DNA of 64,000 nt, from positions 5,338-69,337 of the forward strand of contig VEXD01000004.1 of the NCBI GenBank assembly GCA_009391235.1, in the 5' to 3' direction. How positions within the stretch are numbered: position 1 is the first letter of the stretch; the number at the start of each line of letters is the position of its first letter. The notes beneath the pieces are model-generated. The model made no database searches, had not been told where the DNA came from, and worked only from the letters and a program-made list of their open reading frames with translations. This DNA comes from SAR202 cluster bacterium AC-409-J13_OGT_754m. Its GTDB lineage: Bacteria > Chloroflexota > Dehalococcoidia > Lucifugimonadales > GCA-2712585. The translations under genes and the position numbers were made by a program. This document shows positions 35,132-42,383 of this stretch, piece by piece.

Positions 35132-35386
35132 ATGTCTGCGTATTCACTTGCGCTTAGACTTGTCGGTGTTGGGTGGTTTATATCTAGTAGTGTAGTAATT
35201 GGCCTACTGGGAGGGAAGTGGCTTGATGACAAAACTGAGAGTTCCCCGCTATTTGTGTTGTCGGGAGTTGCCTTAGGTTTATTAGTCTCAAGTTACAGTA
35301 TTTATAAGACGTTGGCACATATAATACGGCAGTCGGATAGCAGTGTTTCTCCTCTACAAGAGGATGATAAAGAAGAAGGTGATTGA
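35132..35386 (+). CDS. AtpZ/AtpI-family two-TM protein
   Basis: GLLGGKWLD...PLFVLSGVALGL pattern; first gene of the atp operon. Confidence 0.85.
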   Translation: MSAYSLALRLVGVGWFISSSVVIGLLGGKWLDDKTESSPLFVLSGVALGLLVSSYSIYKTLAHIIRQSDSSVSPLQEDDKEEGD

Positions 35387-36444
35387 TAGGACTTATGGCG
35401 AAACCACTCGTGATGGGCATTGGGTTAGGGATAATAACCCTCCTGGTATTGGGGTTTATAGTTGGAGCGATAGGTCAAAAATTCATCGAGTCCCGAACGC
35501 CTATTTCTGCACTTTCACTAGATGCACCTGAGATTCATCTTCCTGCCCAGGCGGTTTATCCCGCAGACAAGAGAGAAGAGGCCATGCAAGGGCATAATCT
35601 TGGGTTTATGGGATTTGCCATCACGAATACTATGATGTCTTCCTTTGCAACTACACTGGTTCTAATATTAGTGTTGGTACTTGGTGCTCGTAGAAAGCGA
35701 TTAATCCCAGGTAGATTCCAGTGTTTTGTAGAATTAATAGTGGAAAGCCTATTTAATTTTGTGGAAGGTGTGTCCGGTAAAGAGATGGCGCGTAGATTCT
35801 TTCCAGTAATAGCGACTATATTCTTGTTTGTAATGTTTAACGCGTGGATGGGTTTGTTACCGTTTTATCCTGCCTGGGGTTTTGATCCACAAGCTCCAGA
35901 TGGAGGTGTTTACTGGGCAAGCAGCCAGGAATTGGACGTTAAAGCTGCATCCTATGATTCACATGGGATTATTCATCAAGAAGCGGTTCCTATTGATGGG
36001 CACGATACTCATATGTCTAAGGTAGATTTGTTTAGACCAGCAGGTACAGATATTAATATGCCTCTAGCGCTTGCTATAGTAGCCTTTGTGTTTGTCGAAT
36101 TTTGGGGATTCAAGGTTTTGGGTATTGGATATTTGAGCAAGTTTATACGGGTCAGGAATTTATTTAGAGGACCTAAATATCTTTTTACTGCCCTGATAGA
36201 CCTTTTTGTAGGCATATTGGAAACGTTAAGTGAATTGATTCGTGTTGTAAGCTTCACTTTTCGTTTGTTTGGTAATATGCTAGCTGGAGAAATACTTATA
36301 TTGGTATCAGCTTTTCTGATTCCATTTATATTTAGTGTTCCATTTTATGGACTGGAATTATTGGTAGGATTTATTCAGGCAATGATATTCGCAGGGTTAA
36401 CGGTGACATTTGCCGCTGTAGCGATTGCACATCACGAAGAATAG
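35383..36444 (+). CDS. atpB: F0F1 ATP synthase subunit a
   Basis: PGRFQ, SFTFRLFGNMLAGE (essential Arg), LELLVGFIQAMIF. Confidence 0.95.
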   Translation: MIGLMAKPLVMGIGLGIITLLVLGFIVGAIGQKFIESRTPISALSLDAPEIHLPAQAVYPADKREEAMQGHNLGFMGFAITNTMMSSFATTLVLILVLVLGARRKRLIPGRFQCFVELIVESLFNFVEGVSGKEMARRFFPVIATIFLFVMFNAWMGLLPFYPAWGFDPQAPDGGVYWASSQELDVKAASYDSHGIIHQEAVPIDGHDTHMSKVDLFRPAGTDINMPLALAIVAFVFVEFWGFKVLGIGYLSKFIRVRNLFRGPKYLFTALIDLFVGILETLSELIRVVSFTFRLFGNMLAGEILILVSAFLIPFIFSVPFYGLELLVGFIQAMIFAGLTVTFAAVAIAHHEE

Positions 36445-36490
36445 GATTAAAAGTAGTTATTTATTAAACCAGCTATTAAGGAGGTAAACG

Positions 36491-36592
36491 ATGGATGTAC
36501 TTCTTCTTATATTTACTGTTGTAGGCGTAGCGTTACTTGGGCTCGTAGTAGGTGGAGTATGGGCGATTTACGCTGCAGGTCAAGACCGATAA
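36491..36592 (+). CDS. Unannotated 33-aa single-TM protein inside the atp operon
   Basis: MDVLLLIFTVVGVALLGLVVGGVWAIYAAGQDR*; SD TAAGGAGGT 5 nt upstream of the ATG; sits in the atpB-atpE gap. Confidence 0.75.
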   Translation: MDVLLLIFTVVGVALLGLVVGGVWAIYAAGQDR

Positions 36593-36612
36593 GAAAACTA
36601 GAGAAAAAATGA

Positions 36613-36924
<312 letters not shown>

Positions 36925-36957
36925 TCCTAGTGTAATGGCATAAATGAGAGGTTAGTT

Positions 36958-37461
36958 ATGGCCGACTTAGGTTTAAATATACCGAGTTTAGTGGTATTCC
37001 TGGTCAACTTCACTATCCTTTTGGCAATTTTGTACCTTTTTGCATTTAAGCCCATATTGAAGCTCTTGGATCAAAGGTCTGAACGCATTAGAGAAAGCTT
37101 AGAGGCGGCAGATAGTGCCCGTCAGGCTGCAACTGCTTCAGAAGCCAAAACACAAGAACAACTTAATGAGGCTAGACTGGAAGGACAACGTTTGTTAGAA
37201 CAGGCACGCCAAATAGCGGAGAAATTCCGAGAGGATGAAATGACCAAAACCCGGAATGAAGCTGAGGCTTTCATAGAACGGGCTAGGCAAGGTATAGAGC
37301 AAGAAAAAAGTGAAGCAATTGAGGAAGTAAAAACTCATTTTGCAGGACTTGCTATTTATGCTGCAGAACGTGTGATAGAGAGATCTTTGGATAGGGAATC
37401 TCATAAAGATCTTATAGGGAAAGTTTTGAGTCAGGAATCTAATGTGGATAAAGAGAGCTAA
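36958..37461 (+). CDS. atpF: F0F1 ATP synthase subunit b
   Basis: N-terminal TM (VNFTILLAILYLFAFKPI), LDQRSERI and long coiled coil. Confidence 0.94.
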   Translation: MADLGLNIPSLVVFLVNFTILLAILYLFAFKPILKLLDQRSERIRESLEAADSARQAATASEAKTQEQLNEARLEGQRLLEQARQIAEKFREDEMTKTRNEAEAFIERARQGIEQEKSEAIEEVKTHFAGLAIYAAERVIERSLDRESHKDLIGKVLSQESNVDKES

Positions 37462-37466
37462 CTGTT

Positions 37467-38048
37467 ATGGCGTCTTCTATATCGGCAAAAAGATATGCTC
37501 AAGCTGTTTTTGAAATAGCTGTTTCAGAGGAAGACTCTTCATCCTCAGAGCGTTTGAATAAGTGGGCCCAGGATCTGGCACTTATGAAGGCATTTGTGGA
37601 TGAAGAGGAATTCAGGCTATTTTTGCAGGCTGCTAGTATCTCATTAGAAAAGAAGGTTAGCGTCATAAGTGAAGTTTTACCTGATACGATTGCTTCAGCG
37701 CGCAACCTGCTTTCTTTAATGGCATCTCGTGGCCACGCCGAAAGGATTAGAGATGTGGAAGCTGAGTTTCTGAAATTATTAGACCACTATAATGGTGTAG
37801 TTAGAGTGAAAACGTTTTCTGCGGTTACCATTGACGATAGACAAATGGATGGCATTAAAGAATTTGCGAGTAAACTAACTGGTAAAAATATTATTTTAGA
37901 ATCTCAAATAAGTGAAAAAATGATTGGGGGCCTTACGATTGTAGTTGGCGATCGTATGCTGGATGGTAGCACCAAGTCTCGGTTATTTGATTTGGGACGC
38001 AGTCTTGGGGCGATTTCATTACAAACTGTTGGATTGGGGAATAGTTAG
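37467..38048 (+). CDS. atpH: F0F1 ATP synthase subunit delta
   Basis: [25 protein letters not shown]. Confidence 0.93.
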
Positions 38049-38058
38049 GAGGTCAGGG

Positions 38059-39579
38059 ATGACGACTCGTGGTTCAGATATAGTTTCGGTAATTAAGCGT
38101 CAAATAGAAGAGTTTCAGGGCGACCTTAAAATGATTGACGTCGGCACTGTTGTTGAAGCAGGCGATGGGATAGCTCGCATTCAGGGTCTCCAGGGAGTTC
38201 AATACAGTGAACTGCTGGAATTCCCGAATGGCATATTTGGCATGGCTCTAAACTTGGAAGAAGATACGGTCGGAGCGGTTGTTATGGGTGATCCTAACGC
38301 CGTTCGAGAGGGTGACACGGTTCGGTCTACAGGTCGAACTATTGAGGTTCCTGTTGGGGATGGACTACTGGGACGTGTAGTTGACGCTTTAGGAAGGCCT
38401 CTTGATGGTAAGGGCCCGATTGTTTCTGAAAAGACCAGACCTATGGAAAGGCTAGCTCCTAACGTAGTTGCAAGGCAATCAGTGGATACCCCAGTTCAGA
38501 CCGGTATTAAAGCGATAGATTCTATGATACCTATCGGTCGTGGACAGAGAGAGTTAATAATTGGAGATAGGTCAACAGGTAAATCTGCTGTTGCGATAGA
38601 TACTATCATTAATCAAAAAGGCCAAGACTTGCTTTGCATCTATGTAGCCATTGGGCAGAGGCAAGGCAAAGTGGCTCAAGTGGTTGCTACATTGGAGGAG
38701 GCAGGTGCTATGGAACATACGATAATAGTAGCTGCTAATGCTGCTGATCCTGCTCCATTGCAATATATAGCTCCCTATGTTGGATGTGCTATGGGTGAAG
38801 AATTTATGGAGTCAGGGAAAGAGGCGTTGATTATATACGATGATCTTACTAAACATGCTTGGGCCTATAGGGAAATGTCGCTGTTATTGCGACGACCAGC
38901 AGGTAGAGAAGCATATCCAGGCGATGTTTTCTATCTACATAGCAGACTTTTGGAACGAGCTGCTAAATTAGCTCCAGAGTATGGTGGCGGCTCTTTGACG
39001 GCCTTGCCAATCATTGAGACTCAAGCTGGCGACGTTGCTGCGTATGTTCCCACTAACGTGATATCTATCACAGATGGTCAAATTTATCTGGAACCTGAGT
39101 TGTTCAATGCTGGTGTAAGACCAGCAGTAAACGTAGGATTATCGGTATCCAGAGTAGGTGGTGCTGCACAAACGAAAGCAATAAGGAAAGTAGCCGGCAG
39201 ACTGCGTTTGGATCAGGCTCAATTTAGAGAGTTGGCGAGTTTTGCTCAATTTGGTACAGCAGATCTTGATCGTGCAACTAGAGCACAATTAGAAAGAGGA
39301 CAGCGCAGCACAGAGATTCTGAAGCAACCTCAAAATAAACCAATGTCTATGGCTAGGCAAGTTGCTGTATTTTATGCAATAACCAATGGATATATGGACG
39401 ATGTGCCAATTGCAAAATGCAGAGAATTCGAATTCAGTTTTCAAGCATATATGGAAACCTCCCAATCGGCTTTGGAGTCAAAAATATCAGATGTAAAGGA
39501 TTTGACTCCTGACCTAGAAGACGAATTGAAAAAGGCGATAGAAGATTTTAAATCAACTTTTATGCTTTCTGTACAATAG
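38059..39579 (+). CDS. atpA: F0F1 ATP synthase subunit alpha
   Basis: [42 protein letters not shown]; ATG 38059 after AGGAGG. Confidence 0.97.
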
Positions 39580-39594
39580 GAGTAGTTATTAGCG

Positions 39595-40458
39595 ATGCCT
39601 AGTTTGAGGGAGTTAAGGAGACGGATACGCAGTATAGAAAACACTGCGAAGGTCACTCATGCAATGGAAATGATAGCTGCTTCTAAGATGAGAAAGGCGC
39701 AAGGAGCAGTATTGTCTGGTAGGCCGTATGCGGAGAAAATACAGGAAGTAATCGCTAATCTTGAAGCTCAACAAGATGCTGTGGAATTAGTGCATCCTCT
39801 TTTAGAACGTAGGAACGTCCAAGATGTTACTCTAATTCATTTTACCCCTGACCGGGGTTTATGTGGTGGACTACATGGTAATTTAAATCGAGCGGTAGCG
39901 GAATTCATTTTGTCAAAAAAGGGATCCTCAGTTCAGGTAATTGCAGTAGGTAGAAAGGGAAGGGACTTTATAGTTAGAACAGGACTGAATCTGAAAGCAG
40001 AGTTTACTAATATGGGAGATCAACTCAAAGTCTCCGACATACTTCCACTTTCACAGATGGTTTTAGATGAATACTCGTCTGTTAGTACGGATGAGGTGTA
40101 TATAGCGTATCCTAGATTCGTATCCATGGCTGTTCAGCGTCCAACTATTGAACGAGTTATTCCGGTGGATCCTTCTGATCTACCTTATGAAGCAAAAGTT
40201 GGGTACATATATGAGCCGGATCCGATGGGTGTTCTAAATGTTCTATTACCCAGATATATAGAAATGCAAATATATCATGGATTATTGGAACTTAACGCTA
40301 GTGAACAGTCGGCAAGAATGGTTGCGATGCGCAATGCGACTGATAGTGCGAACGAAATGGTGGACGATCTGACACTTGAGTTAAATAAGGTCAGGCAAGC
40401 CAGTATAACTAATGAGCTTCTCGATATCATTGCTGGCACCATTGCCCTGAAAGGTTGA
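39595..40458 (+). CDS. atpG: F0F1 ATP synthase subunit gamma
   Basis: AMEMIAASKM, DRGLCG, SEQSARMVAM, RQASITNEL. Confidence 0.96.
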   Translation: MPSLRELRRRIRSIENTAKVTHAMEMIAASKMRKAQGAVLSGRPYAEKIQEVIANLEAQQDAVELVHPLLERRNVQDVTLIHFTPDRGLCGGLHGNLNRAVAEFILSKKGSSVQVIAVGRKGRDFIVRTGLNLKAEFTNMGDQLKVSDILPLSQMVLDEYSSVSTDEVYIAYPRFVSMAVQRPTIERVIPVDPSDLPYEAKVGYIYEPDPMGVLNVLLPRYIEMQIYHGLLELNASEQSARMVAMRNATDSANEMVDDLTLELNKVRQASITNELLDIIAGTIALKG

Positions 40459-40509
40459 ACGTAATTCGATAACATATTACTAACGTGGGGTTCAAGAACG
40501 ATATCTTGA

Positions 40510-41925
<1,416 letters not shown>

Positions 41926-41954
41926 ATACAGAATTGTTGAATTTGGATTAGAAA

Positions 41955-42383
41955 ATGAATTCTATTGAACTGCAAATTATCACTGCTGAGAGAGTAGTTT
42001 ACTCCGATAGTGTTGAGGCGGTTGTCGCCCCAGGCATTGAAGGAGAATTGGGTATTTTGCCCCATCATTCTGCTCTTATGACTAATCTTAAAGCAGGACC
42101 TCTAATGATACGAAAAGATGGCGAGGAGAGCTTTTTCGCCGTTACAGGTGGTTTCTTAGAAGTGATGGATAACCGAGTAACCATCTTGTCAGATGCTGCT
42201 GAGCATTCACAAGAAATAGATGAGAGTAGAGCTCAATTGGCTATGGAAAGAGCCAGTGAGAGACTGGAAAACAGGGAAGGGAATTTAGATTTAGAGAGGG
42301 CGTTGGCTCAGTTGAAACGAGCCCAAATACGTGTGGCTGTTTCACGTTTAAGAAAAATGCGTAGGGCTAATAGAGGTTTGTAG
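41955..42383 (+). CDS. atpC: F0F1 ATP synthase subunit epsilon
   Basis: GELGILPHH, GGFLEV and C-terminal helical hairpin. Confidence 0.95.
   Translation: MNSIELQIITAERVVYSDSVEAVVAPGIEGELGILPHHSALMTNLKAGPLMIRKDGEESFFAVTGGFLEVMDNRVTILSDAAEHSQEIDESRAQLAMERASERLENREGNLDLERALAQLKRAQIRVAVSRLRKMRRANRGL

Follow-up and report, generated by a model that had tools for sequence, protein, structure and literature searches.

Bacterial F1Fo ATP synthase is taken to be a minimal eight-subunit form, with extra small membrane subunits regarded as a mitochondrial elaboration, and the operon described here raises the question of whether a short open reading frame (ORF) between its atpB and atpE genes is a real gene and, if so, what its product does. 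The operon, which is of the F type and complete, is encoded on the + strand of a 64-kb window (the whole stretch of DNA that was analysed). Its first gene is an atpZ-like gene (35132..35386, +; 84 aa; PF09527 ATPase_gene1, E 2.1e-10), the 3′ end of which overlaps the start of atpB (35383..36444, +; Fo subunit a, 353 aa; PF00119, E 6.6e-40; TIGR01131); we place the atpB start at TTG 35383, with ATG 35395 as the alternative. A gap of 192 nt separates the end of atpB at 36444 from the start of atpE at 36637 (36637..36924, +; Fo subunit c, 95 aa; PF00137, E 9.4e-17), which is followed by atpF (36958..37461, +; Fo subunit b; PF00430, E 9.8e-27) and by five long ORFs (37467..42383, +) that correspond in order, sizes and translations to atpH, atpA, atpG, atpD and atpC (F1 and delta). 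The Pfam scan took in the first four operon genes, and the names of atpH to atpC rest on translations.

The sequence-only reading of this DNA had placed an ORF in the gap at 36491..36592 (+), and these coordinates match: the micro-gene runs from ATG 36491 to TAA 36590-36592 and codes for a 33-aa product, MDVLLLIFTVVGVALLGLVVGGVWAIYAAGQDR, with one predicted transmembrane helix. A Shine-Dalgarno site (TAAGGAGGT, 36477..36485, +, read directly) lies 5 nt before the ATG, as had been claimed, and the finer sequence details check out as well, including the GxxxG motif in GLVVG of the micro-peptide and the DVLL common to the N-termini of the micro-peptide and subunit c. The initiation context said to be shared with atpE is there too: TATTAAGGAGG precedes both genes, but the spacer to the atpE ATG is 11 nt, not 5. 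This second Shine-Dalgarno site (36615-36625, +; AGGAGG core at 36620..36625) has its core 27 nt past the stop codon of the micro-gene and is distinct from it.

Being just 33 codons long, and having an N-terminus and Shine-Dalgarno context that resemble those of atpE in the window, the ORF could be no gene at all, but either a frame open by chance in AT-rich spacer DNA or the decayed remnant of a duplicated atpE. We therefore turn to its relatives as the evidence that bears on this reading. Among 69 loci examined (L001-L030, L044-L074 and L079-L086), 39 have an intact ORF, and all 39 intact copies read sit between atpB and atpE. They are 31 (six copies), 32 (28 copies) or 33 (five copies) codons long, they start with ATG (35 copies), GTG (two) or TTG (two), and a GGAG, GAGG or AGGA core is present 4-18 nt upstream in 37 of them. 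The micro-gene start lies 9-246 nt past the atpB stop, across an unalignable spacer, and the length of the ORF shifts by no more than one codon. Of the 26 loci listed, 25 have 28-94 nt between the micro-gene stop and the atpE start; the remaining one (L023, at -41) has a mis-assigned atpE start.

The upstream spacers hold an additional element. In one relative (G006, L013) the spacer between atpB and the micro-gene is filled with repeated palindromic elements, and the element, with the core ...GGATTCCCGC(C/T)T(T/G)CGCGGGAATGACGG..., occurs in one to four copies in the spacers of L013, L015, L016, L060 and L073. The copies are always upstream of the micro-gene Shine-Dalgarno site and never within the ORF.

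The pattern of substitutions in the ORF is of the coding type. In frame, pN/pS is 0.57, compared with 0.88 and 1.27 in the other two frames (276 pairs, 24 sequences), and the summed column entropy for codon positions 1, 2 and 3 is 30.9, 22.0 and 46.3, respectively (24 sequences), with third positions varying most. The median dN/dS is 0.40 (97 pairs with 0.05 < pS < 0.6), a value that points to moderate constraint only, and mean column identity is 51% for the micro-peptide as against 75% for subunit c. Five loci from one genus code for an identical 32-aa peptide despite 12 variable nucleotide sites (11 in third positions, plus one first-position Leu change), all of which are synonymous, and their flanks differ freely. 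The micro-gene is under purifying selection, and it is evidently a real, translated gene for a single-pass membrane peptide of 31-33 residues. The sequence-only reading had set as its own test that an SD-led ORF with dN/dS below 1 be conserved in relatives, and this is what we find, with a constant ORF length and flanking spacers of 9-246 nt.

Descent from atpE has fared less well. We aligned 38 family members (alignment A5; 16 loci plus 22 database representatives), and hhalign of A5 against subunit c (A6) gives a probability of 0.2% over 1 aligned column; PF00137 is matched by 0 of the 38 members. The micro-peptide is thus rejected as a fragment of subunit c, and the kinship with atpE that the Shine-Dalgarno context and DVLL motif had seemed to hint at finds no support; moreover, the DVLL-bearing extension of subunit c is confined to a few genera and the micro-gene is far wider. 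A chance ORF or decayed atpE duplicate is refuted by the substitution pattern, the fixed length and this profile comparison, conservation of the family also speaks against it, and we regard it as scarcely credible that the ORF is not a gene.

The peptide has a simple and consistent anatomy. AlphaFold2, run on the family alignment, predicts one uninterrupted helix spanning residues 2-31 with a mean pLDDT of 95.6. The peptide is of about 3.3 kDa and contains no internal tryptic site, which puts it beyond the reach of standard shotgun proteomics. An acidic residue, Asp or Glu, occupies position 2 in 36 of the 38 members of A5, and small residues account for 97%, 89%, 92%, 95%, 61% and 71% of columns 15, 18, 19, 22, 26 and 29, respectively. 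The spacing of 3-4 between these positions places them on one helix face, forming a Gly/Ala/Ser stripe that is conserved on a single face of the C-terminal half; a one-sided stripe of small residues is the usual mark of tight helix-helix packing. The body of the peptide is aliphatic and is followed by an aromatic residue, usually Tyr, and then by Ser/Thr, Arg/Lys, Gln, Asp/Glu and the stop codon, with Arg/Lys, Gln and Asp/Glu predominating at the last three positions of A5; the polar C-terminal tail is GQDR in the window peptide and SRQD in the family consensus. Acidic residues are found just at position 2 and in the tail, and the basic residue is in the tail only. Basic residues favour the cytoplasmic side of a membrane (the positive-inside rule), and since the sole basic residue is in the tail, the peptide is predicted to insert with its acidic N-terminus outside and its Arg/Lys tail in the cytoplasm. 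Insertion would probably be post-translational, because a 32-residue peptide is finished before it leaves the ribosome.

The family appears in none of the collections of named families that we searched. Pfam has no family for the window peptide at E 0.1 (with scattered weak matches among the 38 members), NCBIfam has no match (the best, at E 0.15, is to an unrelated model), and among PDB sequences there is no relative (best E 5.6, to PetG). The micro-peptide family is undescribed in Pfam, NCBIfam and the PDB. The best ESM Atlas scores, 0.82-0.83, are to unnamed 'hypothetical protein' clusters and are below the level that we rate above a lead. In titles and abstracts, we found no paper on a bacterial gene between atpB and atpE. 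The gene had been called unannotated and missed by length-limited gene callers, and this needs correction: the exact 33-aa peptide is on record in JGI/IMG, Logan and ENA, so the gene is uncharacterised, not uncalled. Its public relatives at NCBI are unnamed or entered as 'hypothetical protein', and a library of 1.84 billion representative proteins contains 36 clusters of the peptide at E <= 1e-3, almost all of them 31-33 aa long.

Other identities were considered and rejected. A subunit c hairpin, with its ion-binding Glu/Asp in the second helix, does not describe a peptide that is a single helix with acids at position 2 and in the tail. Membership in AtpI/UncI (PF03899) or AtpZ (PF09527) is likewise discounted, as the micro-peptide matches neither; it is the 84-aa gene upstream that is a PF09527 member. 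At two loci, L079 and L080, the match lies in a long frame (267 and 186 aa) that is simply left open upstream; in both, the peptide gene is a separate ORF starting after the atpB stop, and among the profile matches we found no fusion with subunit a, b or c.

How widely the micro-gene is distributed bears on whether it is a core or an accessory part of the operon. Relatives were found via subunit a, which is matched in all 61 genomes of the set (the source genome and 60 relatives), and the DNA from the end of atpB to the start of atpE was read in each. The micro-gene is intact in 31 of these genomes, frameshifted in one, absent from 27, and undeterminable in two (G034, at a contig end, and G009, a fragment); in each of the 31 it is a 31-33-codon hydrophobic ORF preceded by a ribosome-binding site of its own. 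In the family of the source genome, 18 of 20 genomes have the gene, and G005, of the same family, is without it. Whole-genome searches (E up to 1) of two non-carriers, G005 and G039, found no copy at any other site.

In a sample of 401 genomes of the same order, a profile built from A5 matches 113, of which at least one (G906, in a 364-aa frame) is probably spurious. The matches are patchy within families (16 of 24 genomes in f14, 16 of 21 in f24 and 4 of 24 in f25), and there is one copy per genome, with the sole second match, in G047, lying inside a 508-aa frame. Eight more profile matches were fetched, and all eight lie between atpB and atpE. Two of the order-sample matches are damaged copies, with a frameshift in G038 (L028) and an in-frame TGA in G868 (G868:C20:7240-7335); each could reflect either decay or an assembly error. 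In a class-wide sample of 401 genomes, nine match at E <= 0.01, but full-length short ORFs are present in just three of them (G000, G042 and G049), all of which belong to the order of the source genome; the other matches are partial, in long frames, or in one case in a 52-aa frame (G311, E 0.005). A match in G440, which lies within a 435-aa ORF for a multi-helix membrane protein, is spurious. In a phylum-wide sample of 401 genomes, the profile matches 0 of the 400 other than the source genome, and named records with the micro-gene are all uncultured Dehalococcoidia or Chloroflexota MAGs. The family is confined to a sub-clade of one Dehalococcoidia order, which is uncultured and largely marine. 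Its absence from 27 of the 59 genomes with a readable gap (58 relatives and the source genome), including G005, indicates that some, at least, of these ATP synthases can do without the micro-gene, and its loss from several lineages marks it as an accessory rather than a core part.

The presence of the micro-gene is related to the type of its neighbours. Two sharply distinct types of subunit c occur within one order (L046-L074 versus L001-L027), which can be told apart by the cytoplasmic end of helix 1 (AAKAMEA in L046-L074, GA(A/S)AM(N/S)A in L001-L027) and by the loop (EAAGPIQQ versus EARGAIL(T/Q)). The micro-gene is almost restricted to the GA(A/S)AM(N/S)A / EARGAIL(T/Q) type, and most non-carriers have a visibly different subunit c (...AAKAMEALGRNPEAAGPIQQ...). 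The exceptions are G024, a carrier with an intermediate type, and G031, G032 and G043, which are non-carriers with a carrier-type subunit c, with G005 as a further non-carrier exception. The C-terminal half of subunit a is also more alike among carriers.

These associations bear on the reading that the peptide has no connection with ATP synthase, acting instead as a regulator of another transporter or as a membrane-stress peptide and residing in the operon for expression only. Many small bacterial membrane proteins do act on targets unrelated to their neighbours, and the nearest named ESM Atlas cluster by features is MgtS-like, with a score of 0.78 that makes it a lead only. However, a passenger gene should in some genomes have changed place or been duplicated, and in about 40 genera the 39 copies read are all between atpB and atpE, with one per genome; the tracking of subunit a and c sequence type by the micro-gene argues in the same direction. 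We consider a role outside ATP synthase improbable.

Several other features of the Fo genes were noted in the course of these comparisons. Subunit c has a conserved, hydrophobic N-terminal extension of about 15-20 residues in the window (36637-36693) and in L003, L006-L018, L059 and L062, with the motif M-L/F-G-L/F-E/D-V/I-L-M/L-S/A-V-G/A...; the Shine-Dalgarno site is in front of it, so the extension is translated. In the window, where it has 19-20 residues, its last residues are A-E-A, followed by M-G-K, an arrangement similar to a signal-peptidase site. The extension is limited to a few genera, and most other micro-gene carriers have a canonical subunit c of 76-80 aa. Subunit a has an extra N-terminal transmembrane segment ahead of the canonical first helix, and a variable insertion between LLP(F/I)YP..GF and L(F/L)RPAGTD (~35880-36020 in the window; residues ~165-210; columns 180-280 of alignment A3). 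The insertion has a length of ~45 residues in the window and ~110 in genus g2, whose version includes a conserved G-C-x-P-(A/G)-P-C motif; in the other families it is nearly absent. Finally, G043 has a second atp-like cluster (L057, G043:C33) where a b-like gene comes immediately after the subunit a gene and a c gene between the two is missing.

Metatranscriptomes provide evidence on how the region is represented in RNA. Contigs from three runs, belonging to three seawater or marine studies, join the micro-ORF with atpE (36397-37091, 36403-37197 and 36526-36724) and have no difference from the window inside the micro-ORF; contigs of this kind show presence in RNA libraries and contiguity, and neither translation nor transcript ends. 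In two of the studies the contig starts fall within the last 50 nt of atpB (at 36397 and 36403, 6 nt apart), and both contigs extend across the micro-ORF and atpE as far as atpF, a weak hint that 36397-36403 might be an RNA 5′ end or processing site. A scan for sigma-70-type promoters found no + strand site in 36081-36491, and five sites in the whole region compared with 5.5 expected. Rfam has no family in the atpB-atpE gap, and the RNA fold of the gap is no better than that of shuffled sequences (z +0.78).

This arrangement invites the explanation that the micro-ORF is a cis-acting leader, the translation of which prevents the initiation region of atpE from closing up, or makes the mRNA more stable, and so allows the high-copy subunit c to be produced in excess, the peptide itself having no job. 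The ORF is directly upstream of atpE, at the distances given above, both genes have strong Shine-Dalgarno sites, the contig starts at 36397 and 36403 weakly hint at a separate or more stable RNA, and in Escherichia coli subunit c is known to need translational enhancement. A regulatory leader would be recognised by a lack of amino-acid constraint, apart perhaps from a short stalling motif, and by coupling to the downstream start through overlap or a conserved RNA switch, and we find neither. The peptide itself is what is conserved, remaining identical across the 12 synonymous changes and being under frame-specific purifying selection, with the small-residue stripe and R-Q-D/E tail kept and a length of 31-33 residues in 39 of 39 copies. 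Moreover, atpE has its own Shine-Dalgarno site and begins clear of the micro-ORF stop at 25 of 26 listed loci (all but L023), neither the gap fold nor Rfam points to a structured RNA, and there are relatives with the same subunit c type that have no ORF. We therefore give this leader reading little credence.

A role for the peptide in the making of Fo, rather than in the finished enzyme, has more in its favour. The peptide could be a transient helper for c-ring formation or for the joining of a and c, similar to UncI/AtpI, which then leaves the complex. UncI (PF03899) is not recognisable in the source genome or its relatives (one of 61 genomes is over the cut-off), the micro-gene sits between the genes for subunits a and c, the two that are joined last in Fo assembly, and dispensability in many lineages is compatible with such a helper. 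Yet the non-carriers are without UncI too, and since it is missing in carriers and non-carriers alike, the micro-gene fills no carrier-specific gap; we accordingly reject the idea that it replaces UncI. A single helix of 32 residues also offers little surface for chaperone-like action, and on balance we think a departing helper unlikely, although the present results fit it and a resident subunit alike.

We lean instead towards the micro-peptide being a resident accessory component associated with Fo, and think this somewhat probable. The sequence-only reading had proposed a lineage-specific Fo subunit, c-ring plug or assembly peptide. The first part of that proposal stands: an SD-led ORF that is kept with dN/dS below 1 and a constant length between variable spacers is a lineage-specific protein gene inside the Fo part of the operon. 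As for the specific role, whether subunit, plug or assembly factor, an accessory function in Fo is plausible and is what we infer from position and sequence. Through its small-residue stripe the peptide would pack against either one of the transmembrane helices of the stator in Fo (those of subunit a and/or b) or the outer surface of the c-ring, and it would act as a non-catalytic accessory that stabilises Fo or aids its assembly. Against this stand the moderate constraint on the peptide, its much greater variability compared with the subunit c that it might contact, the lack of fusions among the profile matches, and the ATP synthases that work without it. Complex prediction with subunit a (A3) and the micro-peptide (A4) gave a score of 0.00 in two runs, performed without controls, and counts neither for nor against such an association.

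The stronger version of this resident-component reading, that the peptide is a stoichiometric ninth subunit of F1Fo in a widespread marine Dehalococcoidia clade, we put forward tentatively, as possible but doubtful. Such a subunit would be located next to subunit a or the c-ring, where it could tune stator stability or coupling. The non-carriers (G005, the carrier-type-c genomes G031, G032 and G043, and those in the patchy families) indicate that their ATP synthases work without the micro-gene, and these repeated losses offer natural with/without pairs to compare. The carrier group is abundant in seawater, and transcripts of this operon are present in seawater metatranscriptomes.

In comparing the micro-peptide with known systems, we begin with its closest neighbours. 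It is like subunit c in its Gly/Ala-rich helix that leads into a polar R-N/Q-x-E/D turn, in the adjacency of the two genes and in their similar Shine-Dalgarno context in the window, but it is predicted to form a single helix where subunit c forms a hairpin, and it carries no intramembrane carboxylate. AtpI/UncI, AtpZ and the AtpQ/AtpR of N-ATPases are, like the micro-peptide, membrane proteins of atp operons beyond the eight core subunits; they are larger, multi-helix proteins with genes upstream of atpB, whereas the micro-gene is between atpB and atpE and the window has an AtpZ-like gene of its own. We know of no bacterial F1Fo structure with such a small single-helix subunit. Passages of a structural study of the Chloroflexus aurantiacus ATP synthase (PMC12002316) describe eight subunits from an eight-gene cluster, with no extra small subunit, and in passages of a 2026 preprint on how rotary ATPases evolved, additional small membrane genes come up for N-ATPases only. 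A conserved, selected, operon-internal micro-gene with a single-helix product is thus a concrete candidate for an added bacterial Fo component.

Within ATP synthases, the nearest counterparts would be the supernumerary single-helix Fo subunits of mitochondria (8/A6L, f, i/j, k, 6.8PL and DAPIT), which surround subunit a. These are eukaryotic and serve dimerisation and cristae shaping. The micro-peptide is similar to them as a small single-pass helix and a lineage-specific addition to a conserved core, although there is no sequence similarity. If it does prove to be a ninth subunit, bacteria would have their first known supernumerary Fo subunit of the single-helix kind, and the mitochondrial trend towards small helices around subunit a would have arisen independently in free-living bacteria.

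The nearest functional kind, judged by analogy, appears to be that of KdpF in the KdpFABC K+ pump and CydX in cytochrome bd oxidase, which are operon-encoded, non-catalytic and lineage-restricted single-helix micro-subunits of ~30-37 residues. Accessory micro-subunits of this kind have fewer than about 50 residues, one transmembrane helix and a conserved place inside the operon of their complex; the peptide described here has 31-33 residues in 39 of 39 copies and one predicted helix, and its gene holds the same place at 39 of 39 loci, with RNA contigs that run from it to atpE. It has no sequence relationship to KdpF or CydX, and its host would be an F-type ATP synthase; what it shares with them is small size, a single transmembrane helix, a gene inside the operon of a membrane complex, and restriction to a lineage.
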